28,420 nt of DNA from a phage (GCA_014816205.1 GCA_014816205.1_4096.1), one strand, 5' to 3'. Counted from the first letter of the stretch, positions 10,795 to 26,328 are shown. Made by a program: numbers and translations. The notes: generated from the sequence alone by a model not told the origin.

Positions 10795-10886
10795 TTTTAT
10801 TTCTCTCTCTTTGTTAGGAGGGGAACCATTCCCCCTCTCGATGTAAACTATTATACAGTACTAAGATACTTTGTCAATACTTAATT
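10790..10886 (-). promoter_or_regulatory. PeSL-like cassette, direct repeat of 10519-10616
   Basis: Minus strand TTGACA...TATAAT, hairpin GGGGAATGGTTCCCC, leader AACAAAGAGAGAGAAATAAAAATG. Confidence 0.6.
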
Positions 10887-11156: not shown

Positions 11157-11225
11157 TTTAATGTTTCCTTATCAGTGGTTGATGTAAGTATTATACTCGT
11201 TTACTTTCTATTGTCAAACTATTTT

Positions 11226-11298
11226 ATCAGGGGAGGTTTTCTTATGTCTTACTCCTGGACTACTTAACGGGGTTACTTGTTTCGTTCCCCGTCCTGAT
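11226..11298 (-). promoter_or_regulatory. structured leader element, copy 1
   Basis: Closing stem ATCAGG/CCTGAT enclosing hairpin ACGGGG...CCCCGT; sits between two tandem minus-strand promoters. Confidence 0.4.
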
Positions 11299-11379
11299 GT
11301 AAAACATTATACTTGATTCTAAGTACAATGCAAGTACTTTTTTAAAAATAGTTTTCAGTACTAGCCACCAGCAAACAAT

Positions 11380-11466
11380 AGATACATTTATGCACCCTGT
11401 GGGCTGATTTGTTTCTATGCGTATATAATAGCAAAGGGACTGACCGGAGTCAATCCCTTTTTCAAT
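11380..11466. repeat. composite intergenic repeat, copy 3
   Basis: tgcaccctgtgggctgatt 11391-11409; hairpin 11436-11457 plus ttttt. Confidence 0.6.
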
Positions 11467-11471
11467 TATTT

Positions 11472-11621
11472 TTAAACTTGTTTCGGGTTGCGATAGGTGA
11501 TAGCGTTCGGGTACATTTGTTTAATGTTATTCCATGCCTGGTTAACATTGTAACCACTTGAGCGAATCAGTTGGTTGCTACCGACACCTTGAAACACTAC
11601 TTCGAATAAGAATTCTTTCAT
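11472..11621 (-). CDS. small protein (49 aa), absent from ORF track
   Basis: Hand translation codon by codon: MKEFLFEVVFQGVGSNQLIRSSGYNVNQAWNNIKQMYPNAITYRNPKQV; start overlaps upstream TGA. Confidence 0.45.
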   Translation of the reverse strand: MKEFLFEVVFQGVGSNQLIRSSGYNVNQAWNNIKQMYPNAITYRNPKQV

Positions 11622-11791
11622 GCTTTCACCTCGCTATCTGCTTTACCTTTACGCCAGGACATTACTAATTGTTCGCGTTGCCATAAGTCGAGTGATACAA
11701 AAAGTTTTGCGGTATCACTTTTAGGATACTCGCCATTAGTACCTAACCGATAAAACAGATCTTTCAGTACTGATAATTCTACTTGAATCAT
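11618..11791 (-). CDS. small protein (57 aa), absent from ORF track
   Basis: Hand translation: MIQVELSVLKDLFYRLGTNGEYPKSDTAKLFVSLDLWQREQLVMSWRKGKADSEVKA; ATGA overlap with upstream gene. Confidence 0.45.
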   Translation of the reverse strand: MIQVELSVLKDLFYRLGTNGEYPKSDTAKLFVSLDLWQREQLVMSWRKGKADSEVKA

Positions 11792-11880
11792 TTTATTACT
11801 CCTGATTGCGTTAATACTTCTACTATTGCATGAATGATCATAAGTACAGCTAAAACAATAATCATCGGATTCATTTGCAT
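11788..11880 (-). CDS. small hydrophobic peptide (30 aa), absent from ORF track
   Basis: Hand translation: MQMNPMIIVLAVLMIIHAIVEVLTQSGVIK; AAGGAG 8 nt upstream; first of three coupled small genes. Confidence 0.4.
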   Translation of the reverse strand: MQMNPMIIVLAVLMIIHAIVEVLTQSGVIK

Positions 11881-11897
11881 AAGCTGTACTCCTTATA

Positions 11898-12110
11898 TTA
11901 ATCTTTCAGCCAATGATCCTGAATGAATTTTTCGCCGGAACCTTGCTGCATTGTTTGTAACAGACGTTCACGATGAGCGGCGGCGAATTGCTCAGTACTA
12001 TGCGTTACGCCAGGCTGATAACGTGATACCCCATCCGGTCCGATGTATTGTACATCCCACGGTTTAGCGTTAGTATCAGACCATTTACGAACGATTAGTT
12101 GACCTTGCAT
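11898..12110 (-). CDS. hypothetical protein (70 aa)
   Basis: ORF track; GAGAGGAAAG upstream. Confidence 0.6.
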   Translation of the reverse strand: MQGQLIVRKWSDTNAKPWDVQYIGPDGVSRYQPGVTHSTEQFAAAHRERLLQTMQQGSGEKFIQDHWLKD

Positions 12111-12195
12111 TTTTCTTTCCTCTCAGTGGGGAGAATCATTTCTCCCCTTCATGTAACTTATTATACAGTACTATAATCTATTGTCAAATACTTTT
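12111..12195 (-). promoter_or_regulatory. PeSL-like promoter/hairpin cassette
   Basis: ggggagaatcatttctcccc hairpin; minus strand TTGACA...TATAAT. Confidence 0.5.
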
Positions 12196-12384
12196 TTAAA
12201 GTTTATGAATCAATTCTTTATCTAAGCGATAGCGTACATTATTAATGGTAACAGCATTATTTTTAATGCTACGCTGTACAGGTCCACCAGCAATAACAAA
12301 TGTTGCTTTATTACCCCGAACAATGATAGCACTTCCAGGATTACCGAAATCATCTTGTACTAAAATACTTGATAAGTTTTCCAT
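12196..12384 (-). CDS. hypothetical protein (62 aa)
   Basis: ORF track 12196..12390 trimmed to second ATG (12384), which has GAGGA at proper spacing. Confidence 0.55.
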   Translation of the reverse strand: MENLSSILVQDDFGNPGSAIIVRGNKATFVIAGGPVQRSIKNNAVTINNVRYRLDKELIHKL

Positions 12385-12462
12385 TTTCATTTCCTCTTAG
12401 TAGGGGAAGATGTTTCCCCTTGATGTAAGTACTATAACACTACTGAAAACTAAATGCAAGTA

Positions 12463-12819
12463 CTATGATAAAATCATGATAGGATATTCACTATCGATCA
12501 GTACCTCGAATCCGAAACCTTCGTACCATTCTTTAAGATTGAAGGCGTTATCTTCTCCTGTATCGCATTCTAAAATGATACAATCTGAATCATCGGCGGC
12601 ATCAATAAAGGCATTCATTAATTCGTTACCTTCACCATTGCCCCGACTATCAGGATCAACATAAAGAGAATCAATAAACGCTACACGGTCATAATCAAGA
12701 TCCGGTGCAATGATTCCACGTTTAACAAACCAGTACTGCAATTGTGCTACTTTGCCCTGTACTTGATAACCAGTGATCTCGCCATTGTCAGTAGTACGCG
12801 TGATATGTTGTATTCCCAT
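12463..12819 (-). CDS. GNAT-family acetyltransferase-like protein (118 aa)
   Basis: ORF track; RGNGEG resembles the acetyl-CoA-binding motif and WYEGFGFE the C-terminal GNAT motif; GAGGA upstream. Confidence 0.5.
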   Translation of the reverse strand: MGIQHITRTTDNGEITGYQVQGKVAQLQYWFVKRGIIAPDLDYDRVAFIDSLYVDPDSRGNGEGNELMNAFIDAADDSDCIILECDTGEDNAFNLKEWYEGFGFEVLIDSEYPIMILS

Positions 12820-12882
12820 GATTTCTATCCTCAGTTAAGATATAAAACATTATACACTATCTTTCAGTACTGTCAATACTTT

Positions 12883-13140
12883 TTATCTCATAGATCTATG
12901 CCAACAATTACGCGGGGGACGTTTAAAAGTACTATCATGATCCTCCTGGCAAGTTATGCAGTACTTACATCCCTTAACGGCCTGGCGTCGTTTCTCAGGG
13001 ATTATATCGCCGCAGTCGAGGCAATGTATCAGTGATTCTATTTGTGCGTTAATTTGCTTTCTAGCGTGGTTAACGGCGGCCTGAATCACTGCGTTGATCT
13101 CGTCTTGTTCGGCCCCGTCTTTCGCGTATCCTACTGCCAT
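12883..13140 (-). CDS. TraR/DksA-family C4 zinc-finger protein (85 aa)
   Basis: ORF track; CLDCGDIIPEKRR...CKYCITCQ matches the CxxC-x17-CxxC TraR/DksA zinc-finger pattern. Confidence 0.55.
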   Translation of the reverse strand: MAVGYAKDGAEQDEINAVIQAAVNHARKQINAQIESLIHCLDCGDIIPEKRRQAVKGCKYCITCQEDHDSTFKRPPRNCWHRSMR

Positions 13141-13471
13141 TATTTTAACCTCATTATAAAAATACTATAGTACTGTAATGCGACAATAATATTACTTGTT
13201 CTTACTTTTTCCAATCCACATGATACCACATATTCATCCCCATATGTGCGAAACGATACACCATGAAAATTTTTATACACTTGCACTACTAATCATAACC
13301 TTTCGTCTAACCAACTGCATAGAATTATACTACTTTACGCAAATTGATCAAGTATTGATCAGATCATTTTTTGATCAATATTATACAGTTACATTTGTGC
13401 ACCCTATGGGTTAGTGACGTTCTCGTCTTGATGTAAGTATTATGCCAGTACTGGATGATATTGTCAATAGA

Positions 13472-13669
13472 TTATTTTAATTTTTTTCTGTCATTGATTA
13501 ATGCTTTCAGTACTATACTAATGATTTGCAATGATTCATCAATGACTATAAAATTATTCTCTTTCATTAGATGATAGTTACCATTGATTGTATATTCTAA
13601 GGAGTACTGTTTACGTTTAATTTTTGATAATGTTTCTATTTGTTTTTGTACTGATTTCATGCTAATCAT
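13472..13669 (-). CDS. hypothetical protein (65 aa)
   Basis: ORF track; AGGA 9 nt upstream. Confidence 0.55.
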   Translation of the reverse strand: MISMKSVQKQIETLSKIKRKQYSLEYTINGNYHLMKENNFIVIDESLQIISIVLKALINDRKKLK

Positions 13670-13774
13670 TGTTAAACGTCCTGTAACGCATTCTAACGAG
13701 ATAAACGGTTTAGTACTGGCATTGTATAGGGTAATGAATTAAAGTCCACCAGCGTTAACCAGTGGGCTATAATC

Positions 13775-13918
13775 TTACATCTTGCGGATAATCTTAACAG
13801 TATCTTTCACCGATTTACCGTCCTGTTGACATTGTTCGATCATCGCGTATTGTTCTGCGGTCAGATCCTCGCCAGTTTTTGCCAGTACTGCGTCGATGAA
13901 TGAATCCAGTGCGATCAT
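13775..13918 (-). CDS. small protein (47 aa), absent from ORF track
   Basis: Hand translation: MIALDSFIDAVLAKTGEDLTAEQYAMIEQCQQDGKSVKDTVKIIRKM; AGAGAGAAATAAA leader; promoter cassette 13919-14017. Confidence 0.45.
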   Translation of the reverse strand: MIALDSFIDAVLAKTGEDLTAEQYAMIEQCQQDGKSVKDTVKIIRKM

Positions 13919-14017
13919 TTTATTTCTCTCTTAGGTTAAGTTAACTACTGTTTATAAAACTTATTATACAGTACTATCAAACGTTGTCAATATCTTTAAT
14001 AGTACTGGTAATATATT

Positions 14018-14197
14018 TTAGCGGTAATCGTCGTATGCTTTATTCACCTGGCGAATGTAACTTTCAAAGGCTTCGTCTACCGTTTCATACTCCCGAACAT
14101 AATCACCATAGGAAACTACATACATACCTTTTTGATCTTCAAACGACATGATGATAGAATCCAGGCCGATGATTTCAGTTTTTGCGATGATAGCCAT
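14018..14197 (-). CDS. hypothetical protein (59 aa)
   Basis: ORF track 14018..14260 trimmed to ATG at 14197 with AAGGA upstream. Confidence 0.55.
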   Translation of the reverse strand: MAIIAKTEIIGLDSIIMSFEDQKGMYVVSYGDYVREYETVDEAFESYIRQVNKAYDDYR

Positions 14198-14289
14198 TTT
14201 TAATTCCTTAGTAGTGTAGTTGATAAAAGTTATTATGCCAGTACTATCAATCAGTGTCAATAGCTTTGATAGTACTGTGATAATATTTT

Positions 14290-14502
14290 TTAGTTAATAA
14301 TAGTCAGTGTAAAATTGTAATCACCACAGCGATATAGCACGTTATTCCCAAATGTTCCAACTAATCGCACATCACACAAAACTCCGGTTTTTTCTTTTAC
14401 CTCCTTGATACTTGTAACTCCTGTAATATCTTTATTAAAGTATTCATGATCTGAAAATAAAACTTGTTTTGCATTTTTTAATTTCGACCGGATATTAGCC
14501 AT
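14290..14502 (-). CDS. hypothetical protein (70 aa)
   Basis: ORF track; start context AAAATGGCT. Confidence 0.6.
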   Translation of the reverse strand: MANIRSKLKNAKQVLFSDHEYFNKDITGVTSIKEVKEKTGVLCDVRLVGTFGNNVLYRCGDYNFTLTIIN

Positions 14503-14595
14503 TTTGTTTTCTCTCTGTTAGTGGGGAGAACTATTCTCCCCTTCATGTAAAACATTATACAGTACTATAATCTATTGTCAAACTATTTTTTAATA
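14503..14595 (-). promoter_or_regulatory. PeSL-like promoter/hairpin cassette (consensus example)
   Basis: Minus strand TTGACA, 16 bp, TATAAT, GTTTTACATGAAG, hairpin GGGGAGAATAGTTCTCCCC, then AGAGAGAAAACAAAATG. Confidence 0.6.
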
Positions 14596-14937
14596 TTATT
14601 CGAAATCTTCTGGACCGGACTGATAATCATCTTCACCGTATGCACTTTCTAACCGCTCGCCAGTTTGATCATCAGTTAGTGAGTCATCCTCATAGTTCAC
14701 GTCTACGCCTACAATGTAAAACTGGCTATCGTCTGGATCATTGAAATTAATTTTCTGAATGTTTACAATAACTGTATTGATGCCCAGGACACAGCCATCA
14801 GCCGTTACAAAGTACTGATATTTTTCACAACCGCCTGAATTGAAACCGTAATTGATTTCGGCCCGACCATCATTTAAACGCAGTGCCTGAGCGATGATTT
14901 CGTTTTCAAAGTTAGATTGAGCAATTGAGATAGTCAT
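14596..14937 (-). CDS. hypothetical protein with acidic C-terminus (113 aa)
   Basis: ORF track; AAGGA upstream. Confidence 0.6.
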   Translation of the reverse strand: MTISIAQSNFENEIIAQALRLNDGRAEINYGFNSGGCEKYQYFVTADGCVLGINTVIVNIQKINFNDPDDSQFYIVGVDVNYEDDSLTDDQTGERLESAYGEDDYQSGPEDFE

Positions 14938-15071
14938 GATTCGTTTCCTTATTACCAGGGGAAACCGTTTCCCCTTTCGATGTAAAACATTATACGCCTA
15001 TTGAGATAGTTTGCAAGTACTTTTTATCAAATACTTTAAAATAGTTTTCAGTACTCAAACATTATACAATA

Positions 15072-15160
15072 GATACACTCCTGCACCCTGTGGGCTAGTG
15101 AGCTATCTCTCAATGAATATATAATAGCAAAATGGCTGACCGAAGTCAACCACTTTTTTC
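15072..15160. repeat. composite intergenic repeat, copy 4 (variant hairpin)
   Basis: tgcaccctgtgggctagtg 15082-15100; hairpin tggctgaccgaagtcaacca 15133-15152 plus tttttt; arm changes preserve pairing relative to other copies. Confidence 0.55.
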
Positions 15161-15162
15161 AT

Positions 15163-15297
15163 TTATTTTTTAGCTTTAAGTACTGCGGCCTTTCGTGTCA
15201 TTCCTTGTTTGATGTACTCCTTTACTTTCGCTTTTTTAGCGTTTACCTTGTCTGCTTTCGTTTTAGGAGTACTGTAAATTATACCGTTAGGATTCAT
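15163..15297 (-). CDS. small Lys-rich protein (44 aa), absent from ORF track
   Basis: Hand translation: MNPNGIIYSTPKTKADKVNAKKAKVKEYIKQGMTRKAAVLKAKK; start overlaps upstream stop. Confidence 0.45.
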   Translation of the reverse strand: MNPNGIIYSTPKTKADKVNAKKAKVKEYIKQGMTRKAAVLKAKK

Positions 15298-15387
15298 TTA
15301 AATCACCATAAAGAATAGATAGGTTACTAACAATGCCGCGATCAATGCACCGACCAGGGCCGAACTGTAATAAGCCAATGATTTCAT
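15298..15387 (-). CDS. small hydrophobic peptide (29 aa), absent from ORF track
   Basis: Hand translation: MKSLAYYSSALVGALIAALLVTYLFFMVI; ATGA overlap with 15384.. gene. Confidence 0.4.
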   Translation of the reverse strand: MKSLAYYSSALVGALIAALLVTYLFFMVI

Positions 15388-15536
15388 TTTTTAGCCTGAA
15401 AGTAATGTTTAATTTGTGCGGCGGTCAGTGCACAATTACGCAGGAAGTTTTCTGTATAACTGCGTCGAGTACTGAAAGAAAATTGACCTTTGCCGTTACC
15501 GATAGTAACATCAAACCGAGCATTATATTGTTTCAT
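15384..15536 (-). CDS. hypothetical protein (50 aa)
   Basis: ORF track 15384..15566 trimmed to ATG at 15536; track N-terminus is the translated leader hairpin. Confidence 0.5.
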   Translation of the reverse strand: MKQYNARFDVTIGNGKGQFSFSTRRSYTENFLRNCALTAAQIKHYFQAKK

Positions 15537-15617
15537 TTTGTTTCTCCTGATAGTGGGGAGAATCATTTCTCCCCTTGATGTAAAACATTATACAGTACTG
15601 AAAACTAATTGCAAGTA
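15537..15617 (-). promoter_or_regulatory. PeSL-like promoter/hairpin cassette
   Basis: RC of ttgcaa 15609-15614 and attata 15587-15592 (16-bp spacer); hairpin ggggagaatcatttctcccc 15555-15574. Confidence 0.6.
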
Positions 15618-15764
15618 TTATTTTTTAGATTTACGCAAACTTTCTACCATCTCAGGAGTAAGGCCCGGCGGGTAGGAAACCACTTCATCAACGAAACGTA
15701 AAGGGAATACCCCAGCGAAAGGTGAACATGCTTTCTTAGTATTACTCTTTTTTGATGCTTTCAT
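15618..15764 (-). CDS. small basic protein (48 aa), absent from ORF track
   Basis: Hand translation: MKASKKSNTKKACSPFAGVFPLRFVDEVVSYPPGLTPEMVESLRKSKK; AAGGA upstream. Confidence 0.45.
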   Translation of the reverse strand: MKASKKSNTKKACSPFAGVFPLRFVDEVVSYPPGLTPEMVESLRKSKK

Positions 15765-15833
15765 TTCATATTCCTTAATTAGTGGGGAGTACTATTTCTC
15801 CCCTTCATGTAAAACATTATACAGTACTGAAAA
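15765..15833 (-). promoter_or_regulatory. PeSL-like promoter/hairpin cassette
   Basis: ggggagtactatttctcccc hairpin; same promoter module as 15537-15617. Confidence 0.55.
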
Positions 15834-16043
15834 CTAATTGCAAGTACTATTTGAAAGTAAATGCTCATACGCTGCATTAACTACATTTTCAATAACCGAC
15901 TGTACAGAAAGATCCCCCACGTCCTGGCTATAGTAGAAATTGCTTACAGTGGTGTCATCGTATGCAAATACTTTACCAGGTACGGCATCAATCACATACA
16001 TATTAACCTTTAAGATGTCGATCTTATCCTGTACAGTAAGCAT
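15834..16043 (-). CDS. hypothetical protein (69 aa)
   Basis: ORF track 15834..16157 trimmed to ATG at 16043; the track N-terminus overlaps a better gene in another frame. Confidence 0.5.
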   Translation of the reverse strand: MLTVQDKIDILKVNMYVIDAVPGKVFAYDDTTVSNFYYSQDVGDLSVQSVIENVVNAAYEHLLSNSTCN

Positions 16044-16044
16044 A

Positions 16045-16215
16045 TTACGCCGCCTTATCAGTACTGGCAACCGGACGGATACGGGCCATTTCCTGGGCTT
16101 GTTCCACACTGTAACGCTCATAAAGGCGGCATTCTTCCGGTGTAGGAACAGCATCAATACGCTTCATCGGTTTAATGATTCTTTCGATCTCATTCAGTAC
16201 TTGATTAACGTTCAT
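16045..16215 (-). CDS. small protein (56 aa), absent from ORF track
   Basis: Hand translation: MNVNQVLNEIERIIKPMKRIDAVPTPEECRLYERYSVEQAQEMARIRPVASTDKAA; GGGGA 7 nt upstream. Confidence 0.45.
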   Translation of the reverse strand: MNVNQVLNEIERIIKPMKRIDAVPTPEECRLYERYSVEQAQEMARIRPVASTDKAA

Positions 16216-16266
16216 GGTATAATCCCCAATATAAGCGGCCTAAATCGACCACTAACGATGATTTGA

Positions 16267-16536
16267 TCAATAGGTGTATGGTTGACGCTCAAACAATGAT
16301 TGCACGTTGTACGCCCCGCTTATGGGCTTCGCTGGCAAATCAATTTTATATTGTTCACGCTTAAAGATAATAAAACGGCAATTGTTTTTAACATCAAAAT
16401 TGATTGAACGTTCCAGGAGTTTACCATCGTGCACAAATACAAGATAACCGCTTGGTACTTGTTTTGTAGAACTGGTTGCAACCATAGACCGACGAACATG
16501 TGTACCTGCATCGATTAAAGTACTGATATTTTTCAT
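16267..16536 (-). CDS. hypothetical protein (89 aa)
   Basis: ORF track; AAGAGGAAAG upstream. Confidence 0.6.
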   Translation of the reverse strand: MKNISTLIDAGTHVRRSMVATSSTKQVPSGYLVFVHDGKLLERSINFDVKNNCRFIIFKREQYKIDLPAKPISGAYNVQSLFERQPYTY

Positions 16537-16616
16537 TTTACTTTCCTCTTAAGTTGATTTAATTTCTTTCCCCTATGCAGACACTATATCAAAGTATCTG
16601 CATAAAGTAAAGCTAA

Positions 16617-16940
16617 TTAAAGATCTTTTTTGCGTTTAACATTCTGTACAGTACAATGCAACGGGATATTAAGATCATTGCACAAACGATAGAGGGAGGT
16701 TTCAACAGTATCAAGCCCGTCTACTGATTCCTTTAAGAGTGATACCGCCGTTTGTTGATATGCATCCTCATAGCCATAAGTAAATGATTCAACCGCCAGA
16801 TCATTCAAGCCGTTATCCAGTTCAACGCTTACATGACAAGAATGATAAGTATTGCCATATGAATCAGTCCAACGTTTACCGTCAACATTGATTGCATGGA
16901 TTGCAGCCAGGGAAACGGTGTTGATGATAGTTTTAGCCAT
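16617..16940 (-). CDS. hypothetical protein (107 aa); paralog of 10200..10523
   Basis: ORF track; shared RWTDSYGNTYHSC and FTYGY and KRKKD motifs. Confidence 0.6.
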   Translation of the reverse strand: MAKTIINTVSLAAIHAINVDGKRWTDSYGNTYHSCHVSVELDNGLNDLAVESFTYGYEDAYQQTAVSLLKESVDGLDTVETSLYRLCNDLNIPLHCTVQNVKRKKDL

Positions 16941-16968
16941 TTTAGTATTCCTTAAATTAATATGTGTC

Positions 16969-17042
16969 GTCTTGATAAAATCTATTATGCCAGTACTATC
17001 AAACTATGTCAATAGTACTGTGATAATATTTTTACTTACTTT
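16969..17042 (-). repeat. about 74-bp direct repeat, copy A (promoter module)
   Basis: Identical to 17263-17336; contains RC of TTGACA and CATAAT. Confidence 0.65.
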
Positions 17043-17244
17043 CTTTTGATGCTTTATATGTTGCCACTGCCATAACCACATCAGCACGAACAAAGTTTTT
17101 AACCGTGTCAGTGTAGTAATTGATTGCATCGTCTACATCTGTGAACGTCCGATACATACCGCACCAAGATACTTTATAACCTTCTTTCACTTGTTCAAGT
17201 TTAACCAGTGTTTTGTTTACTTTAATTTTAGTAATGATAGCCAT
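17032..17244 (-). CDS. hypothetical protein (70 aa)
   Basis: ORF track. Confidence 0.6.
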   Translation of the reverse strand: MAIITKIKVNKTLVKLEQVKEGYKVSWCGMYRTFTDVDDAINYYTDTVKNFVRADVVMAVATYKASKESK

Positions 17245-17262
17245 TATTGTTTCCTCTTAGTT

Positions 17263-17336
17263 GTCTTGATAAAATCTATTATGCCAGTACTATCAAACTA
17301 TGTCAATAGTACTGTGATAATATTTTTACTTACTTT
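17263..17336 (-). repeat. about 74-bp direct repeat, copy B
   Basis: Identical to 16969-17042; the two copies flank the 17032..17244 gene. Confidence 0.65.
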
Positions 17337-17469
17337 TTTCTTTCTTAATTGCTTCCACCTGGTCGGCCCATTCTTTACCCCATACTTGTAAATTATAATG
17401 GTACTGGCAAAGAGCAACGCCCCGCTTTAAACCAGTAATAGATTTTGTACCACATTGACAAGTTTTCAT
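17326..17469 (-). CDS. small Cys-rich protein (47 aa), possible zinc ribbon; absent from ORF track
   Basis: Hand translation: MKTCQCGTKSITGLKRGVALCQYHYNLQVWGKEWADQVEAIKKEKSK; preceded by cassette 17470-17554. Confidence 0.45.
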   Translation of the reverse strand: MKTCQCGTKSITGLKRGVALCQYHYNLQVWGKEWADQVEAIKKEKSK

Positions 17470-17554
17470 ATTAGTTTCCTTGTAGTGGGGAGAATCATTT
17501 CTCCCCTTGATGTAATGTATTATACTTTATTCGATTTACTTTGCAAGTACTTTT
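17470..17554 (-). promoter_or_regulatory. PeSL-like promoter/hairpin cassette
   Basis: ggggagaatcatttctcccc hairpin; RC of TATAAT and TTGCAA. Confidence 0.55.
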
Positions 17555-17782
17555 TTAATTTAATTCATCCAGGCAAAGGATACGTTCCACACCAAGATCC
17601 GTTAAACTAATGGTCGGTACTTGATAGGTTTCAATGTATGCTACACTTGCCCACTGACCGAACTCATTAACGGCCCAGGTATTCATTGCATTTTGCAATT
17701 CCACACCTTCCTTGTTGGTAATGACTGCAACTACTTGTTCGTTGCCAGTAGTACCAGATACGCGAGTAATGATAATAGCCAT
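17555..17782 (-). CDS. hypothetical protein (75 aa)
   Basis: ORF track. Confidence 0.6.
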   Translation of the reverse strand: MAIIITRVSGTTGNEQVVAVITNKEGVELQNAMNTWAVNEFGQWASVAYIETYQVPTISLTDLGVERILCLDELN

Positions 17783-18231
17783 TTTTTAATTCCTATTCAG
17801 TAGTTGATGTATGTATTATGTCAGTACTTAAAACTATTGTCAAACTATTTTTTAAAATTTATCAATGATTGATGCCGTTTCATTGATAGTCTTGCCGTGT
17901 TTTGCACACGCGATAACTGCTTTAAATTCCTTTGATGACCAATCTTTCTTGCTGCATACTGACATTACTTGTAACGTGAAACAATCCAGTTCATAAGTAT
18001 TCATCTTTAAATCCTCAGTTAGTTAAGGTGTCTCGCCTTGATGTAATTAATTATACGCTAATCTCTTAATCGTGCAAGTACTTTTTATTACTTTTTGTAA
18101 AATACTTTAAACACTCTCAATCGCTTTCTAACGTCCTTAACGCCACCAGCTAGGGCAATGTATCAGATAATCAGTTTAATGCGTTAGAATCGATTCTAGG
18201 CGGTGCTAGTGGACTGGAATACTATAGACAC

Positions 18232-18258
18232 AAAAAAGCCCACTGTTTAAGGTGGGCT
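18232..18258 (-). terminator. rho-independent terminator
   Basis: Hairpin agcccactgtttaaggtgggct followed on minus strand by TTTTTT; directly downstream of 18280.. gene. Confidence 0.65.
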
Positions 18259-18279
18259 AGTGATTCAGTACTTTAATTG

Positions 18280-18762
18280 TTATGCTTCAACTTTGCGATG
18301 AGCTTCGATCCATTCCTCGCGAGTCAATCCGCTTTCTTTGATAGCATCCAGTACTACCGCAATGCAGTTACCGCGTACAGGAATCATATGTTCTTCCCCG
18401 TTATCAAGTACTACAGTAACACGTTCTTGAATCCATTTTTTAGGTTTAGATTCTGGCTTATCTTCACCATACTTAACCGCCAGGGCTTTATGTGCCATTT
18501 CTACAACTACTTCCAGATCCAATCCAGACACCGCCGCCTGGATACTTTCGATTGTTGCTTGCAGTTCGGCTTCACGGGCTTTTTTCTGTTCTTCCAGTTC
18601 TGCTACCTTTTTGGCTTGCAGTTCTTTAGCTTCACTGTACGCAATGTTAAAATTGTTGCGTACTGCTTTCATGGTATCGTTATCCAGGTCAGCCAGCAAT
18701 TCAGCAGCAATAACAGTATCGTTTGAAATCAGTGCTTTCAGGAATGATTTTACATTAGCCAT
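18280..18762 (-). CDS. hypothetical protein (160 aa) with Glu/Lys/Ala-rich central segment
   Basis: ORF track 18280..18777 trimmed to ATG at 18762 with GAGGA 9 nt upstream. Confidence 0.6.
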   Translation of the reverse strand: MANVKSFLKALISNDTVIAAELLADLDNDTMKAVRNNFNIAYSEAKELQAKKVAELEEQKKAREAELQATIESIQAAVSGLDLEVVVEMAHKALAVKYGEDKPESKPKKWIQERVTVVLDNGEEHMIPVRGNCIAVVLDAIKESGLTREEWIEAHRKVEA

Positions 18763-18816
18763 TTTATAAATCCTCAATTAAAGTTTAGTTTACGTTTATT
18801 AGTGTATCAAAGTTTT

Positions 18817-18878
18817 ATCGACGTGTCCAGTTTTTCGTTCGACTTACTGGCGGTCTACTTAGTGCTCCCCGTCTTGAT
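18817..18878 (-). promoter_or_regulatory. structured leader element, copy 3 (long 5' UTR)
   Basis: Minus strand begins ACATCAAGACGGGGA and contains TAAGTAGACC, as in copies at 11226 and 22074; promoter TTGACA/TAGAAAT at 18886-18914. Confidence 0.4.
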
Positions 18879-18965
18879 GTAATACATTCTACGCCTTTTT
18901 GTGGTAATGTCAACTACTATTTTAAAACTATTTTTAAAGTATGCAGTACTACGATAATACAAAAA

Positions 18966-18992
18966 CAAAAAAGCCCACTGTATAAGTGGGCT
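18966..18992 (-). terminator. rho-independent terminator (duplicate of the 18232 module)
   Basis: Hairpin agcccactgtataagtgggct followed on minus strand by T-run; downstream of 19010.. gene. Confidence 0.65.
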
Positions 18993-19009
18993 AGTGATTC
19001 AGTACTATA

Positions 19010-19309
19010 TTATAAACAGTTAATTACTCCGGTGTGCGTTACTTTCTCAGTATCCATAACAGTGACCGAACCGCGTTTAGTACTTGCATCGTAATAAATT
19101 GTCGTGCTACCTTTTTCGTCTTCTTCATGGAACGGCCCGTTTTTAAATGCTTCTGGCTGGATCTCTAAATCCTTTAAAACAATCTCGCCAGTACTTTCAT
19201 TGGTCATCGCTACAGTGCACTGAATGAATTTTTCACTACTTACATCTAACGACGCATTAACAGCGAAAGAGGAAACAGATAAAGCCAGGGCGATGATTGC
19301 AATTTTCAT
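19010..19309 (-). CDS. secreted or periplasmic small protein with N-terminal signal peptide (99 aa)
   Basis: ORF track; MKIAIIALALSVSSFAVNA has a hydrophobic core and an AxA-type cleavage site. Confidence 0.6.
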   Translation of the reverse strand: MKIAIIALALSVSSFAVNASLDVSSEKFIQCTVAMTNESTGEIVLKDLEIQPEAFKNGPFHEEDEKGSTTIYYDASTKRGSVTVMDTEKVTHTGVINCL

Positions 19310-19393
19310 TTGATTATCCTTAGTTACCAGGGGGAACCGCTCCCCCTTGCGATGTAAAATATTATACAGTACTAAAAACTATTATCAAGTACT
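19310..19393 (-). promoter_or_regulatory. PeSL-like promoter/hairpin cassette
   Basis: gggggaaccgctccccc hairpin; RC of TATAAT. Confidence 0.5.
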
Positions 19394-19630
19394 TTATGAT
19401 TTTTTATAAAACATTTCGGCAGTGATATTTTTACCCGTTGGTTGTACTTTATCCAGAATTTTTTGATGCCCTGGCCGTCCAAATGAATATGATCCGTAAA
19501 CCGTAAACCAGTAGTTACCCTCAGTGTTTACATGTACAGCACAATAGGGAACGCCCCGCGATTCATCACTAGTAAAGTGTGATACCGTTCCCGTTACATT
19601 CGCAGACGTTGATTTGATTTGTTCGAGCAT
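19394..19630 (-). CDS. hypothetical protein (78 aa)
   Basis: ORF track. Confidence 0.6.
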   Translation of the reverse strand: MLEQIKSTSANVTGTVSHFTSDESRGVPYCAVHVNTEGNYWFTVYGSYSFGRPGHQKILDKVQPTGKNITAEMFYKKS

Positions 19631-19738
19631 TTTCTTATTCCTTAGTTACCAGGGGAACCGCTCCCCCTATGCAAAACATTATACGCGTTTAAAAACTAAT
19701 TGCAAGTATTTTAATAAAAAGTATTTGAAAAATAATTG

Positions 19739-19767
19739 TTGACAACTGCATCCAGTACTGGCATAAT
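19739..19767 (+). promoter_or_regulatory. plus-strand sigma70-like promoter
   Basis: ttgaca 19739-19744, 17-bp spacer, cataat 19762-19767; no plus-strand ORF follows. Confidence 0.45.
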
Positions 19768-19773
19768 TACTAC

Positions 19774-19880
19774 ATAAAGACGATACAGTCACTAACCCAC
19801 AGGGTGCATAGATCCGTCTATTAAATGATTCAGTACTGAAAAAGTAACGGGGAGTTATTATCTCCCCGCGTTGTTATTTG
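19774..19880 (+). ncRNA. candidate small non-coding RNA (about 100 nt)
   Basis: Runs from the 19739 promoter to hairpin cggggagttattatctccccg (19848-19868) plus U-rich tail; contains the 19-nt motif; only a 4-codon ORF. Confidence 0.3.
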
Positions 19881-20095
19881 GTAAGGTATAAACAGAAGTC
19901 ACCTTTATTTGCTACGCCGCCAGTGTAACGCGATGAATAGTTAGAAATATCTTGTACTTCTGCTATTACCAGTGTATCATCATTCATTTCGTCGCAGAAG
20001 CAAACGGCTGGATCTTTTACGCCGATATTGTCGGCATGTTCCCGCATAGATTTAACCAGTGCTTCCAGTTGAGAAAGAGTAGTGATATTAGCCAT
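19874..20095 (-). CDS. hypothetical protein (73 aa)
   Basis: ORF track 19874..20125 trimmed to ATG at 20095. Confidence 0.55.
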   Translation of the reverse strand: MANITTLSQLEALVKSMREHADNIGVKDPAVCFCDEMNDDTLVIAEVQDISNYSSRYTGGVANKGDFCLYLTK

Positions 20096-20179
20096 TGTAT
20101 TTTCCTCATTACCAGGGAGAACCATTTCTCCCCTCTATGTAAACTATTATACAGTACTAAAAACTAATTGCAAGTACTT
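20096..20179 (-). promoter_or_regulatory. PeSL-like promoter/hairpin cassette
   Basis: gggagaaccatttctccc hairpin; RC of TATAAT and TTGCAA. Confidence 0.5.
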
Positions 20180-20365
20180 TTAATTAAATTTTGTACCGTC
20201 CAGTAATGAAGCATTACGCATCATTCGCCCAGCACGATCCCAGCTAGTAGGATCGGGAATCCCTTGCAACTCGTTAGGGGAGATCTCAATCTTGATCCCT
20301 ACATTGATAACAGTCATTCCAGCCTTTGCAGCTTGCTCTCGGATAACCTCAGATAATGTTGTCAT
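20180..20365 (-). CDS. hypothetical protein (61 aa)
   Basis: ORF track 20180..20407 trimmed to ATG at 20365 with AGGAG 8 nt upstream; track M1 is a TTG. Confidence 0.55.
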   Translation of the reverse strand: MTTLSEVIREQAAKAGMTVINVGIKIEISPNELQGIPDPTSWDRAGRMMRNASLLDGTKFN

Positions 20366-20426
20366 GATTAAAGCTCCTGTATCGCTTATAATGTTTGTCA
20401 GTACCAATATAAAGTATTATACGCCT

Positions 20427-20639
20427 TTATTGCTTAGTGTCCAGTACTTTTAAAACATAATCAAAGACACCACGCACATCATTGATCATCGCCTGGCGGT
20501 TAGCAGGTAACGCATCAGGATCGCCACTATCCCAGGCATTAATAAAGCCACCTAAATCATGGAATACTTTATTCTGTAAGCCGATTAACTGTAATTCTTT
20601 TTCTTCAAGCTCTTTGATGCGGTCGATTAAATCACTCAT
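20427..20639 (-). CDS. hypothetical protein (70 aa)
   Basis: ORF track 20427..20675 trimmed to ATG at 20639 with GAGGATTATCTAATG context. Confidence 0.55.
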   Translation of the reverse strand: MSDLIDRIKELEEKELQLIGLQNKVFHDLGGFINAWDSGDPDALPANRQAMINDVRGVFDYVLKVLDTKQ

Positions 20640-20656
20640 TAGATAATCCTCAGTAC

Positions 20657-20941
20657 TTAACTGTAAGATCCGCAACGGTCGCAGTAGTGCCCGTCCTCGT
20701 CATCGTCAACGAATTGACCGACGAAATGATCTACTTTCGCTTTGAGGTTATTATAATCGTTTTCTACTTCCTTTAAACGTTCCTGGTAGTATTCCAGTGC
20801 CTTAAGATACGCCGCCTCAGTCGTTTTCTCACGCATAGCTAAATTCATTCCACGCGTTTCATCAAATAGCCAATAACCATCGGTGCATTGACTGATAGAT
20901 AATGACTTGCTTAGTACTGTATAGTTAATTACTTTACCCAT
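20657..20941 (-). CDS. hypothetical protein (94 aa)
   Basis: ORF track; same GAGGATTATCTAATG start context as 20427 gene; C-terminal HYCDRCG. Confidence 0.6.
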   Translation of the reverse strand: MGKVINYTVLSKSLSISQCTDGYWLFDETRGMNLAMREKTTEAAYLKALEYYQERLKEVENDYNNLKAKVDHFVGQFVDDDEDGHYCDRCGSYS

Positions 20942-21033
20942 TAGATAATCCTCAGTAAAGGCGGGAACTATTCCCCGCCTCGATATAAAGTATTATACGT
21001 TAATCTAACTACAATGCAAGTACTTTTTAAATT
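20942..21033 (-). promoter_or_regulatory. PeSL-like promoter/hairpin cassette
   Basis: gcgggaactattccccgc hairpin; RC of TATAAT and TTGCAT. Confidence 0.5.
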
Positions 21034-21300
21034 TTATAATCCTTTTACTGCATCAGGTGCGACTACGCCATCAATGTATTGAACATCGTTTTCCACTTCA
21101 CGGGCGGCATCATTCAGCAGATCAAAATTAAATTCCATTTCTTCCAGATCATCGAAATCAGGCTCATAACCATTAATTGTTGAATAAGTCCAAGTACCTT
21201 TTTCATAAGTTACGACACTTACATCAGGGAAGAAATCTTGCACATGATCCATCGCATCCCGAACCAATTGATGTGCAGTTGTGATATTTAAAGTTTTCAT
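21034..21300 (-). CDS. hypothetical acidic protein (88 aa)
   Basis: ORF track. Confidence 0.6.
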   Translation of the reverse strand: MKTLNITTAHQLVRDAMDHVQDFFPDVSVVTYEKGTWTYSTINGYEPDFDDLEEMEFNFDLLNDAAREVENDVQYIDGVVAPDAVKGL

Positions 21301-21393
21301 TTTGTTGCCCTTTTAGTGTGAGCGGGGAACCATTCCCCGCCTCGATATAAAGTATTATACGCTTTTAAACTTAGTTTGCAAGTACTTTTTGAA
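21301..21393 (-). promoter_or_regulatory. PeSL-like promoter/hairpin cassette
   Basis: gcggggaaccattccccgc hairpin; RC of TATAAT and TTGCAA. Confidence 0.5.
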
Positions 21394-22005
21394 TTAATAT
21401 TCGATTGATTCTACTACGCCATCAATAACATTGAATTGATACTCGTTACCCTCAATCAGTGCTACGATGTTTTCAGTAGTGAATTGATCCTCATATGCAT
21501 TCTCTAAATCACGGTACAACTTGCGTGACAATTCACGAATAGTTTCAGTGAGTAGTTCCTCAAGCTCATTAACTAACGTTTCTTGTTTTGCGGTTAAATC
21601 AGTGTAAGCCGATTCAATGTACCCGCTTACAGTGTTCTCATGCGAGTAGTGAGAGTGAGAACGCTTTACACTCATCGCCAAATCATCTTCATTCAGCAGG
21701 TGACGGATTGAGCGATACTTAGTTAATGCTCTTACCTTGCGTAAAAACTTCACTGCGTCAACGTGGTCAGTACTGATTGATGCACCGTCACCCTGGGACC
21801 AAAAACCACTGAATTGTATTTCAGCGTCATTAATGCCATATTCCGGTAGTACTGTTTCTTTATAGTATTCAATTTCACTTTCAGAAAAATAATCATCGTT
21901 TAAGTTTTTTTCACGTTCCCGAACCAGTTCGATAGCTGACGTTTTTTGTTCTGCGTTCAATTCAGAAAAAGCCATAACATAAGTAGTAGTAGTGATAGTT
22001 TTCAT
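21394..22005 (-). CDS. hypothetical protein (203 aa)
   Basis: ORF track; GAGGG 8 nt upstream; preceded by an unusually long multi-promoter leader. Confidence 0.65.
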   Translation of the reverse strand: MKTITTTTYVMAFSELNAEQKTSAIELVREREKNLNDDYFSESEIEYYKETVLPEYGINDAEIQFSGFWSQGDGASISTDHVDAVKFLRKVRALTKYRSIRHLLNEDDLAMSVKRSHSHYSHENTVSGYIESAYTDLTAKQETLVNELEELLTETIRELSRKLYRDLENAYEDQFTTENIVALIEGNEYQFNVIDGVVESIEY

Positions 22006-22073
22006 TTTGTAACCCTCATTCAGTAGTTGATGTAAGTATTATACGCTTTTAAAAACAATTGTCAAACTATTTT

Positions 22074-22147
22074 ATCAGGGGAGTTTTTCGTGTGCCTTAC
22101 TCCTGGGCTACTTAACGGGCAGTTACTTATTTCGTCCCCCGTCCTGA
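22074..22147 (-). promoter_or_regulatory. structured leader element, copy 2
   Basis: About 85% identical to 11226-11298, same closing stem ATCAGG/CCTGAT; again between two tandem promoters. Confidence 0.4.
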
Positions 22148-22230
22148 TGTAAAACATTATACGCCTTTAAACATAGTTTGCAAGTACTTTTTATCAAATA
22201 GTTTTCAGTACTGAATAGTAAAAAAAAGTA

Positions 22231-25938: not shown

Positions 25939-25953
25939 AGTATTCTCTATTAA

Positions 25954-26327: not shown

Positions 26328-26328
26328 A

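Follow-up and report, generated by a model that had tools for sequence, protein, structure and literature searches.

What is the element that recurs three times on one strand of this phage DNA, each time directly behind a promoter and ahead of a different gene? The whole stretch that was analysed, 28,420 nt long and here called the window, represents the early region of an Asteriusvirus (121Q/PBECO4-like) jumbo phage, where the terminal repeat lies; in an Asteriusvirus, the element falls within the direct terminal repeat of 21.5 kb. A sequence-only reading had described three minus-strand repeats, the third more diverged, and had proposed a covariance-model search with them. We recover exactly three copies, all on the minus strand, at 11226-11298 (copy 1), 22074-22148 (copy 2) and 18817-18878 (copy 3). 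Copies 1 and 2 are 86.7% identical, and copy 3, from which the internal hairpin of the other two is absent, shares 58-61% identity with either. The word TAAGTAGNCCNNNAGTAAG, common to the copies, occurs three times versus 0.06 expected from shuffles, and with a covariance model of the 41-nt core only the three copies score in the window (50-53 bits), the next match reaching 8 bits.

The element folds as RNA. Comparison of about 60 distinct sequences shows that the invariant core is an H-type pseudoknot, 5'-UAAGUA-[GNC]-NN-[4-5 nt, e.g. CCNG]-(A)UAA-[GN'C]-RNAYGAAAAM-[4-5 nt, e.g. CNGG]-3', in which the two GNC triplets pair together (S1) and the two 4-5-nt strands pair together (S2). In the three copies the parts are as follows.

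11226..11298, minus strand: copy 1 RNA domain (86.7% identity to copy 2; the MFE fold holds both helices)
11298-11293 / 11231-11226, minus strand: copy 1 closing stem, AUCAGG / CCUGAU (MFE fold)
11292-11287 / 11272-11267, minus strand: copy 1 hairpin P2, ACGGGG / CCCCGU (MFE fold)
11232..11266, minus strand: copy 1 core pseudoknot (covariance-model match 11229-11268, 50.0 bits; pairs supported in the core alignment)
11266-11261 and 11260-11258 / 11248-11246, minus strand: copy 1 UAAGUA and S1, GUC / GAC
11255-11252 / 11235-11232 and 11245-11236, minus strand: copy 1 S2, GGAG / CUCC, and A-rich loop, AUAAGAAAAC
22074..22148, minus strand: copy 2 RNA domain (sequence and MFE fold)
22148-22143 / 22079-22074, minus strand: copy 2 closing stem, AUCAGG / CCUGAU (MFE fold)
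22142-22138 / 22119-22115, minus strand: copy 2 hairpin P2, ACGGG / CCCGU (MFE fold)
22080..22114, minus strand: copy 2 core pseudoknot (covariance-model match 22077-22116, 52.6 bits)
22114-22109, 22108-22106 / 22096-22094 and 22103-22100 / 22083-22080, minus strand: copy 2 UAAGUA, S1 GCC / GGC and S2 GGAG / CUCC
18817..18878, minus strand: copy 3 RNA domain, the variant without hairpin P2 (sequence)
18878-18876 plus 18873-18870 / 18823-18820 plus 18819-18817, minus strand: copy 3 closing stem, AUC plus GACG / CGUC plus GAU
18827..18861, minus strand: copy 3 core pseudoknot (covariance-model match 18824-18863, 50.1 bits)
18861-18856, 18855-18853 / 18843-18841 and 18850-18847 / 18830-18827, minus strand: copy 3 UAAGUA, S1 GAC / GUC and S2 CCAG / CUGG

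The first search pattern put no constraint (N) on the covarying positions of S1 and S2. In an alignment of 35 distinct cores drawn from every phage group, 96% of the cells are paired versus 79% in shuffles and 15-39% in slid registers, and none of 500 shuffles reaches the observed pairing. The middle S1 pair, N/N', is A-U in 24 cores, U-A in 5, C-G in 4 and G-C in 1, with one mismatch, all four Watson-Crick forms being present; S2 changes on both sides at three pairs, and within the window itself S1 carries a compensatory change (GCC/GGC in copy 2 versus GUC/GAC in copy 1). The pair 13-39 is G·U in 14 sequences and the pair 16-36 is U·G in 2; the opposite strand would have A·C at these places, which assigns the structure to the sense RNA. 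The core is closed by an outer helix, which in the window copies is a nested stem from the transcript +1, with an extra hairpin in copies 1 and 2 and none in copy 3; the latter architecture is also that of Erwinia phage Hallingskeid, L214, L217 and L220. Thus the ATCAGG/CCTGAT stem around the ACGGGG...CCCCGT hairpin, proposed earlier for copies 1 and 2, is present and recovered by MFE folding, but the H-type pseudoknot spanning the TAAGTAG box and the hairpin loop had been overlooked. T7-like phages form a second pseudoknot, between an upstream hairpin's loop and the tail 3' of S2; its five core pairs all change on both sides among 31 sequences, with one mismatch in total and eight or more covarying variants, others being GUCAGA/UCUGAC, GUCAAG/CUUGAC and GUCAC/GUGAC; the upstream hairpin covaries too in these 31 sequences. 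Compensatory changes are seen in four helices, and one of the pairs concerned is a single tertiary pair that takes every Watson-Crick form.

None of the 4227 models of Rfam 15 matches the window at gathering threshold, and with the E-value limit relaxed to 10 no model overlaps the element, whether in window positions 11150-11480 or in phiA1122 440-920; ARAGORN finds no tRNA or tmRNA gene in the window. The element is a member of a large unannotated family of compact RNA domains, and we are highly confident that this is a structured RNA family under selection. A protein-coding mini-gene is rejected: the sense strand of the element holds no ATG, one-base indels are tolerated in its loops, and the frame of a plus-strand mini-ORF (MSYSWTT-stop), already judged unlikely to be coding from the sequence, is conserved in neither copy 2 nor copy 3. 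The suggestion of an attenuator-like element fails as well, since a terminator scan of the window finds no GC-rich hairpin with a U-tract inside or directly after any of the three copies, whose tails read GAUAAAAUAGUUUGACA or CGAUAAAACUUUGAUA; an attenuator or intrinsic terminator is accordingly rejected.

The surroundings of the copies point to how the RNA would be made.

11306..11333, minus strand: P1, upstream promoter of copy 1 (-35 TTGCAT at 11333-11328; -10 TATAAT at 11311-11306)
11190..11217, minus strand: P2, downstream promoter of copy 1 (TTGACA-N16-TATAAT, 12/12 consensus positions)
10881..11156, minus strand: first ORF after copy 1 (91 aa, acidic, PHROG family 14947)
22156..22183, minus strand: P1 promoter of copy 2 (TTGCAA-N16-TATAAT)
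22038..22065, minus strand: P2 promoter of copy 2 (TTGACA-N16-TATAAT, 12/12 consensus positions)
21394..22005, minus strand: first ORF after copy 2 (203 aa, acidic, PHROG family 5162)
18992-18972: intrinsic terminator just upstream of the P1 promoter of copy 3
18886..18913, minus strand: P1 promoter of copy 3 (TTGACA-N16-TAGAAT)
18280..18762, minus strand: first ORF after copy 3 (160 aa, PHROG family 27871)
18258-18237: terminator after ORF 18280..18762

In all three copies the upstream promoter (TTGCAT, TTGCAA or TTGACA, then N16 and TATAAT or TAGAAT) ends 7 nt ahead of the element, so that each copy begins at the predicted +1 of a sigma70-type promoter; for copy 1 this +1 falls on the A at 11298, on the model of T7 A1 (7-nt discriminator, then AUCGAG). 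The PeSL-type promoter described upstream is borne out, P1 of copy 1 belonging to a 22-copy promoter repeat family (D2) whose other members carry a GGGGAGAA-N-TTCTCCCC hairpin where the element would start. A second TTGACA/TATAAT promoter, also part of that description, holds for copies 1 and 2, which stop just short of it, but not for copy 3, downstream of which only weak promoter-like matches occur. The window is made up of about 20 cassettes of promoter plus 5' hairpin preceding small genes, and nearly every small gene of this phage has its own promoter. The P2 promoter and gene start that follow copy 1 recur identically in phage muut, and ORF 18280..18762 is homologous to the gene directly downstream of the element in phages Munch and Hallingskeid. 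The earlier proposal of a structured minus-strand RNA is supported; this RNA is noncoding and begins at the predicted start of the upstream promoter.

The copies are genuine repeats of this phage, as first described, yet the family is far wider, with a homologue in the T7 A1-A2 leader and hundreds of phages. It includes T7 nt 535-596, between the early host promoters A1 and A2. A query with the T7 core matches 488 other phage records, with one copy each, from about 10 enterobacterial genera and Aeromonas, mostly T7-like; the element also occurs in Vequintavirinae, Justusliebigvirus and other jumbo phages, and nowhere does it carry an RNA annotation. Copy 1 as a query matches 45 records, among them Justusliebigvirus and Vequintavirinae that share its promoter-element-promoter layout; copy 3 as a query finds T7-like, Salmonella, Klebsiella and Erwinia phages, and the element is present in Melnykvirinae (GAP227) and Pantoea phage LIMEzero. 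It is found neither in 5,426 E. coli genomes nor in plasmids. In EcoDS1 and LIMEzero it follows the first annotated host promoter, and in T7-like phages a 5' hairpin comes first and the element starts at about +38; from these promoter positions, the domain appears to make up the first 65-100 nt of the RNA transcribed by the host sigma70 RNA polymerase from the terminal part of the genome, which enters first. A promoter-like site follows in 60 of 62 distinct loci, with 3 to 52 nt between the element and the next -35. The conserved block runs from +1 to the -35 of the next promoter, both flanks varying among phage families, and copy number is doubled in genomes where the element sits in the terminal repeat. 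The element is not gene-specific, because the genes behind it come from unrelated families (PHROG families 14947, 5162, 27871, 13850 and 871; ocr in T7-likes). We infer that promoter and RNA form a mobile cassette that is swapped among unrelated phage families and precedes unrelated promoter-gene cassettes.

As to function, our best overall explanation, an RNA family with a role in early leaders, is plausible but falls somewhat short of an even chance, and its mechanistic part, a host-factor-binding module acting on early transcription by host RNA polymerase, is a leading guess that we hold tentatively. The host polymerase would transcribe the domain from the terminal part of the genome, which enters first, and the invariant unpaired bases (UAAGUA, UAA and GAAAA) would be displayed to a conserved component of the enterobacterial transcription machinery. 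The domain would then work in cis, on the very polymerase that transcribed it, and the outcome would be processive immediate-early transcription, by anti-pausing or by anti-Rho activity or antitermination. The functional parallel would be the HK022 put RNA or a nut/rrn-type leader, the latter sometimes co-occurring through boxA (consensus UGCUCUUUAACAA). In L051, L057 and LIMEzero a boxA (CGCUCUUUAACAA) lies 23-35 nt past the element with no promoter between, and about half of the T7-like loci have one 120-400 nt past it. However, a link to Nus factors is not general, because boxA is missing from the window, where the best match has 2 mismatches, lies on the wrong strand and is below chance expectation, and is absent after the element in the jumbo, rV5-like and phAPEC8-like loci examined. 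Against the processivity mechanism, read-through of terminators is not obviously needed because nearly every small gene has its own promoter, and much transcription of downstream genes would bypass the element because a promoter-like site follows it in most loci. On T7 DNA in vitro, the early terminator of T7 stops E. coli RNA polymerase efficiently; this speaks against a put-like antiterminator that is strong and factor-independent, and the viability of T7 mutants with early-region deletions also counts against this mechanism.

The main rival is an autonomous immediate-early noncoding RNA acting in trans as a decoy, the promoter and its roughly 75 nt of RNA being a gene of their own. Such an RNA would be released by processing, e.g., by RNase E in the AU-rich stretch past the closing helix or by RNase III at T7 R0.3, and would sequester or inhibit a host protein (a defence nuclease, an RNase, Hfq, Rho or another). 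We regard this as unlikely, although much of the distribution suits it: the cassette behaviour, with conservation from +1 to the next -35 between differing flanks; the complete promoter-like site that comes next in 60/62 distinct loci, ahead of unrelated genes; the three copies here, doubled where they lie inside a terminal repeat; and the restriction to virulent phages, with zero occurrences in the E. coli genomes or plasmids. Needing no translation step, it would be faster than any protein effector, and a rigid pseudoknot with invariant unpaired bases is what a protein-binding surface typically looks like. In T7-infected cells, RNase III frees a fragment of the A1 leader, and this fragment accumulates. 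Yet no terminator or defined 3' end follows any copy, and the leader of the first mRNA in LIMEzero, L051 and L057 simply has the element as its 5' part, with boxA and then the gene behind it. A 5' leader protecting against RppH- or RNase E-mediated, 5'-end-dependent decay, or a ribosome standby site, would fit the closing stem at the predicted +1 in the window copies, the simple GC hairpin that the other approximately 20 early promoters of the window place there, and the 5' hairpin ahead of the element in T7-likes. We consider it improbable, given that a plain hairpin suffices for protection, as at those other promoters, that the T7-like element is not 5'-terminal, and that mRNAs from the second promoter lack it; invariant loops, two pseudoknots and conservation across unrelated phages are also left unexplained.

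The remaining readings concern the fold itself. A riboswitch-like sensor, in which the pseudoknot would be an aptamer that binds a host metabolite or ion and thereby adjusts early expression, is suggested by the conserved structured domain in a 5' leader, and the size, H-type pseudoknot, A-rich third loop and conserved junction bases resemble preQ1-I and SAM-II. It is nonetheless quite improbable: there is no expression platform (there is no terminator, and no RBS pairing is conserved across types), the downstream genes come from unrelated families, and no Rfam riboswitch model matches at E-values up to 10. Small ribozymes typically show nested pseudoknots with invariant junction nucleotides and typically turn up in phages, and the variable outer topology recalls permuted ribozyme types; self-cleavage that trims or releases the leader is nevertheless very improbable, as no Rfam ribozyme family is matched and we know of no report of self-cleavage in decades of in vitro use of T7 A1 transcripts. 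The least probable reading, with only a faint chance of being right, confines function to the DNA, as an UP-element spacer between tandem promoters, a PeSL-type recombination module or an attenuator, the folded RNA being functionless. The loop A-tract does coincide with the expected UP-element position of T7 A2 (-46 to -38), and the region is full of shuffled promoter cassettes, but the compensatory changes in four helices, the strand-specific G·U pairs and the varying distance to the next -35 (3 to 52 nt) stand against it.

The preferred reading, a host-made early leader domain, can be set beside known systems. With preQ1-I and SAM-II the element shares a pseudoknot of two stems, its first loop short and its third loop A-rich, a core of about 35 nt and a place in the 5' leader, but it has no Rfam match, expression platform or metabolic gene class. 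Like the lambda nut and rrn leaders (boxA plus boxB hairpin), it is a leader RNA near early promoters, with a good boxA 23-35 nt behind its pseudoknot in LIMEzero, L051 and L057 and often one further along the same leader in T7-likes; it is not, however, a simple boxB hairpin, boxA is absent from the window and all examined non-Autographiviridae loci, and a phage N-like protein cannot take part at time zero. The HK022 put RNAs are polymerase-utilisation antiterminators acting in cis; they bind the beta' zinc-binding domain of RNA polymerase and suppress pausing and termination. HK022 putL, about 73 nt long, begins at +3 of an early phage transcript and needs no phage protein to act, its fold being a V-shaped pair of stem-loops with a minor-groove triplex in stem I (PMC9378689). 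Similarly to putL and putR, which are RNAs of about 70-75 nt (PMC9378689), all three copies encode an RNA of about 70 nt right behind the predicted start of an early host-type promoter; the host RNA polymerase would make it ahead of any phage protein, and its predicted fold is compact with tertiary contacts. The published description of put nevertheless sets it apart from the element, with which it has no sequence or architectural similarity: covariation gives an H-type pseudoknot with a closing helix, and overall a double pseudoknot or three-way junction, instead of V-shaped stem-loops with a triplex, and put belongs to lambdoid temperate phages, whereas the element belongs to virulent T7-like, rV5-like, phAPEC8-like and jumbo phages. 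The PeSLs (promoter-early stem-loops) of T4-type phages consist of a promoter plus a simple stem-loop and are read as recombination or regulatory modules (PMC2839356, PMC4122927). The window matches this arrangement in that early sigma70-type promoters with a stem-loop are repeated between small genes, and the element fills the hairpin position behind the promoter and moves among genomes as a cassette. In contrast to a simple stem-loop, it is a long, sequence-conserved pseudoknot that also occurs in phages without PeSL architecture, such as T7, and it goes beyond the PeSL definition.

The window holds three copies of the element, a structured RNA domain of about 60-75 nt. All three lie on the minus strand at the positions claimed in the sequence-only reading, as confirmed by reading the sequence:

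11226-11298, minus strand: element copy 1
18817-18878, minus strand: element copy 3
22074-22148, minus strand: element copy 2

Copies 1 and 2, put at about 85% identity, measure 86.7%, and copy 3, described as more diverged, has about 60% identity and no internal hairpin. A common 19-mer with four free positions occurs three times in the window against 0.06 expected, and a search with a covariance model of the core recovered exactly the three copy sites, at 50-53 bits, with nothing else above 8 bits. Every copy starts 7 nt past the -10 hexamer of its upstream promoter (P1), and by analogy with the early host promoter A1 of T7, the start of the element is the predicted +1 in all three. Both the closing stem and the internal hairpin proposed for copies 1 and 2 exist in the sequence, and minimum-free-energy folding predicts them. 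The location of these two copies between tandem promoters also holds, the element ending 8 nt ahead of a consensus TTGACA-N16-TATAAT; downstream of copy 3, only weak promoter-like matches are found. This sandwich proved to be a family trait that includes T7 A1/A2, with a promoter-like site 3-52 nt past the core at 60 of 62 distinct loci. Coding had been judged unlikely because of the poorly conserved plus-strand mini-ORF; the mini-ORF is indeed not conserved, the sense strand of the copies has no ATG, and a protein-coding role is rejected by the coding-potential check.

Alignment of 35 distinct cores, drawn from all phage groups, yields the consensus UAAGUA-GNC-(A/C)(G/A)-CCUG-(A)UAA-GN'C-RNAYGAAAAM-CAGG. 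Its two helices, S1 and S2, make up a classical H-type pseudoknot with loops of 2 nt, 3-4 nt and 10 nt, the last A-rich. S1 joins the GNC of the TAAGTAG box to the GN'C inside the long 'loop', the middle pair being A-U in 24 cores, U-A in five, C-G in four and G-C in one, with a single mismatch (EmilieFrey). S2 arises where the two 4-5-nt strands on either side of this 'loop' base-pair with one another, and occurs as CCUG/CAGG, CCAG/CUGG, GGAG/CUCC, CUUG/CAAG and CCUG/CGGG. Paired cells amount to 96%, as against 79% in column shuffles, none of 500 of which attains the observed value, and 15-39% after sliding the partner by 1-3 columns. Because the variable positions were entered as N in the first-scan search pattern, they were not selected for pairing. 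The 'invariant' TAAGTAG, TAAG, C and GAAA were partly imposed by the search patterns, and members derived by BLAST, free of pattern selection, differ slightly (UGAGUAG in EcoDS1, CUCAGUC in GAP227, GAACAA in Kayfunavirus). G·U pairs are present in S2, in the internal hairpin of copies 1 and 2 (P2) and in the fifth S2 pair. On the opposite strand they would read A·C, which identifies the folded molecule as the sense-strand RNA. A DNA-only role is contradicted by the covariation. At the level of comparative sequence analysis, the element is thus shown to be a selected, compact sense-strand RNA fold, which bears out the small structured RNA that had been proposed. Two other candidate features were discarded: a pseudoknot between the P2 loop (AAAC) and the tail GUUU of copies 1 and 2, which is not conserved in EmilieFrey or muut, and CsrA-type GGA motifs and anti-Shine-Dalgarno CCUCC, which are restricted to the copy 1/2 subtype. 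The two UAAG boxes presumably bear a weak resemblance to sequences of 16S rRNA helix 44 and of CRISPR I-F or I-E repeats.

The core is closed by an outer helix whose topology varies by phage group. In the type represented by copies 1 and 2 (121Q, EmilieFrey, muut, A73 and contigs L209 and L223 as well), a nested AUCAGG/CCUGAU stem starting from +1 encloses both the hairpin ACGGGG/CCCCGU, with G·U and length variants, and the pseudoknot; Munch-like phages have the equivalent pairs CGGC/GCCG and GGGAUG/CAUUCC. Copy 3, Hallingskeid, LIMEzero and contigs L214, L051, L057 and L265 have no hairpin and are closed by a direct nested stem (GACG/CGUC, CAUC..CGG/CCG..GAUG or CCGAA/UUCGG). In T7-like phages, the closing helix takes its 5' strand from the loop of an upstream hairpin (CCGG-GGUCAA-CCGG) and its 3' strand from the tail past S2; in T7, this tail is the A2 -35 hexamer as RNA (UUGAC). 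Across 31 distinct T7-like sequences, each of the five core pairs in this second pseudoknot changes on both sides with one mismatch in total, and the upstream hairpin stem covaries too. The loop/tail variants are GUCAA/UUGAC, GAUUAG/CUAAUC, GUCGGU/ACCGAC, GUCAUC/GAUGAC, GUGAA/UUCAC, GCUAA/UUAGC, GUCAGA/UCUGAC, GUCAAG/CUUGAC and GUCAC/GUGAC; where the tail is other than UUGAC, the next promoter lies 25-50 nt further away.

BLAST with copy 1 found the element in 45 phage records, extending beyond the jumbo phages to Justusliebigvirus (EmilieFrey, muut, outra) and Vequintavirinae (A73, W70, A7_1, A5-4) at 84-95% identity. At the three loci read (EmilieFrey, muut, A73), the order is promoter, element, GAUAAAAUAGUUUGACA and second promoter, followed by a gene that differs per phage. 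When muut (L030, 2500-2700) is compared with window 11080-11300, its element is about 84% identical to copy 1, and the second promoter and at least the first 60 nt of the downstream gene are base-for-base identical, which points, from the sequence match, to a recent exchange of a cassette between the unrelated Justusliebigvirus and Asteriusvirus. Copy 3 additionally matched Salmonella and Klebsiella jumbo phages (Munch, 7t3, Kae01), Erwinia phage Hallingskeid and the T7-like phages phiA1122 and 13a, in the latter two at 553-628, between the early host promoters A1 and A2. Pattern scans located the element at 535-596 in T7 itself and added dozens of T7-like contigs from IMG/VR and metagenomes, and BLAST with the T7 core returned 488 GenBank phage records with one copy apiece, named for Escherichia, Klebsiella, Salmonella, Yersinia, Enterobacter, Citrobacter, Shigella, Serratia, Erwinia, Cronobacter and Aeromonas. 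Further members are Melnykvirinae (GAP227) and Pantoea phage LIMEzero; in EcoDS1 and LIMEzero, whose host promoters are author-annotated, the element lies directly 3' of the first host promoter. These comparisons show an element that at least five unrelated groups of virulent enterobacterial phages share, apparently through horizontal transfer, and that sits at or close to the 5' end of RNAs transcribed from the first host-type promoter or promoters of the genome end.

Searches of 5,426 complete E. coli genomes and of the PLSDB plasmids found no homologues. A degenerate-pattern scan of genome contigs gave, among the matches listed, chance matches only, except the T3-like L176, and is uninformative on bacterial chromosomes; in the first viral scan, with the window-derived 19-mer, 26 of 28 matches were due to chance. 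A second, degenerate copy suspected by eye between T7 A2 and A3 is not detected by the model. A weaker core look-alike (GUGUUAAGUAGACCAGGCAUUAAGCCGCAAGAAAGUGUGC) scoring 22.5 bits with an S1 mismatch occurs at L064 3920-3960, within a possible long GGCGC/GCGCC stem, and in L074, L079 and L083; it may be distantly related or match by chance, and these four viral contigs were excluded from the alignments.

The window is 90-95% identical to the 121Q/PBECO4 group of E. coli jumbo phages (Asteriusvirus) and carries dozens of small ORFs, with genes on the minus strand, most of them preceded by their own sigma70-type promoter and a short GC hairpin at the transcript 5' end; these promoter repeats fall into families with 16-22 members. 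The corresponding region of the related phage vB_Ec-M-J is contained in a direct terminal repeat annotated at 21.5 kb, which agrees with some records having four matches per genome. About 20 standard early promoter cassettes are present (e.g., 10819-10893, 14523-14597, 20115-20189), whose transcripts open with AUCGAGAGGGG/AUCAAGGGGAGAA followed by the GC hairpin, and their +1 motif is that of T7 A1 (AUCGAGAGGGA); AGTACT recurs in the promoter spacers and upstream of the -35. On the sequence side, this suggests a promoter and initial-transcribed-region design common to jumbo and T7-like phages. Two further repeats occur in the window:

5836-5871, minus strand: ~36-nt repeat
8098-8133, minus strand: ~36-nt repeat
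11371-11406, minus strand: ~36-nt repeat
13378-13413, minus strand: ~36-nt repeat
15062-15097, minus strand: ~36-nt repeat
22317-22352, minus strand: ~36-nt repeat
24221-24256, minus strand: ~36-nt repeat
5898-5925: terminator-like hairpin, 12-bp stem
11433-11460: terminator-like hairpin, 12-bp stem
15129-15156: terminator-like hairpin, 12-bp stem

The intergenic ~36-nt repeat (seven copies; minus strand, UAGCCCACAGGGUGCAGGAGUGUAUCUAU) contains a small GCCC/GGGU hairpin, is present also in Salmonella phage Munch (L033, about 3180-3215), and may be another RNA or a protein-binding site. Two of its copies lie upstream of the P1 promoters of element copies 1 and 2, ending about 40 nt and about 135 nt, respectively, from the -35. 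The three terminator-like hairpins (AAAGGGAUUGACUCCGGUCAGUCCCUUU) have a promoter-like TTGACT-N17-TATTAT embedded in them, so that terminator and next promoter overlap. An ORF-poor stretch of about 1.4 kb (24300-25750), with many AGTACTG motifs and, at 24593-24728, an 8-nt-periodic array of GGCUAAAC/GGCUAGAU-type units, may mark an origin, a packaging region or the boundary of a terminal repeat. The promoter-cassette region is flanked by tandem arrays of small paralogous ORFs of 60-90 aa (1-4400 and 25750-28340), whose repeated internal DNA motifs constitute the repeat families D8, D12, D14 and D16.

The genes that follow the element are mutually unrelated across phages: PHROG families 14947 after copy 1, 5162 after copy 2, 27871 after copy 3 and in Munch and Hallingskeid, 13850 in A73 and 871 in EmilieFrey, with the ocr-type gene 0.3 in T7-likes. 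Pfam, PHROGs, PADLOC and PDB gave no function for the three downstream proteins of the window, and gene context therefore offers no clue. About half of the T7-like loci have a boxA within 600 nt after the element. In L051, L057 and LIMEzero, it comes 23-35 nt after the element with no promoter between, and is followed by a conserved CUGGUCUGGUUCUGUGAUAGUCCACC and then the first gene, an arrangement that, judged by its motifs, looks like an rrn-style leader in virulent phages. Good boxA matches (CGCUCUUUAACAAUCUGG) in T7-like early leaders lie at 785-805 in phiA1122 (L032), 317-375 in LIMEzero (L275), 4170-4215 in L057 and 5445-5490 in L051, and LIMEzero-like phages have a conserved UCUGUGAUAGUCCACC between boxA and the first gene. 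No boxA was found in the window or in the other non-Autographiviridae loci.

Few phages have been studied as thoroughly as T7, whose A1 promoter region serves transcription biochemistry as a standard tool. Despite this heavy study, the searches found no annotation, Rfam family or open-access paper that presents its A1-A2 stretch as a conserved, covarying double pseudoknot; the element is carried by T7 as well as by several hundred further phage records. Rfam 15 gave no match at the gathering threshold or at E-values up to 10, and ARAGORN found nothing. Literature searches, which covered open-access papers, on the element sequence, the T7 A1-A2 leader structure and phage structured RNAs yielded nothing beyond template listings, and an earlier description in the subscription literature is possible. 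We class the element as a new RNA family within phage early-leader structured RNAs. In the records listed, its site bears no RNA annotation and is blank or labeled hypothetical protein or promoter, so that the element is of consequence for annotation; it is so for engineering as well, since constructs with more native sequence downstream of A1 would carry part or all of the domain. Being compact (about 60-75 nt), directly testable and already provided with natural compensatory variants, the domain could help to address how phages, before their proteins are made, secure early transcription or escape host responses.

Regarding function, recurrence of one fold in at least five unrelated virulent groups at the start of early host-polymerase transcripts argues for a general host interaction at the first moment of infection. 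The attenuator-like role that had been offered as one option found no footing, the terminator scan detecting no hairpin plus U-tract after any copy. Across the loci compared, there is no terminator, no conserved ribosome-binding-site pairing and no tie to a gene family, which makes a gene-specific riboswitch or attenuator unlikely. Simple protection of the 5' end seems insufficient, as it would leave the invariant loops unexplained, and a ribozyme is a remote possibility.

Two readings compatible with the sequence are live. The element may be a cis-acting module, combined in some phages with boxA, that on emerging would attach to the host elongation machinery and render early transcription processive or resistant to Rho; alternatively, promoter and RNA may form an autonomous gene whose product would work in trans, as a decoy for a host protein or as its inhibitor. 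Adjacency of boxA in three divergent leaders and the lack of a defined 3' end put the cis-acting module slightly ahead, although the window has no boxA, nearly every gene of this phage has its own promoter and the second promoter bypasses the element. The T7 early terminator, moreover, terminates efficiently in vitro, which also speaks against a cis-acting module. The boldest reading, put forward with more doubt than confidence, is a new class of RNA-only immediate-early effector, the first molecule made from the entering genome. Independently of any phage protein, its double pseudoknot would act directly on a conserved enterobacterial host factor, such as RNA polymerase, Rho, an RNase or an immune sensor, to reprogram or disarm it, its promoter-plus-RNA cassette being shared horizontally among T7-like, rV5-like, phAPEC8-like and jumbo phages. 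Among known systems, the element is analogous in position and size to putL of HK022 (PMC9378689).
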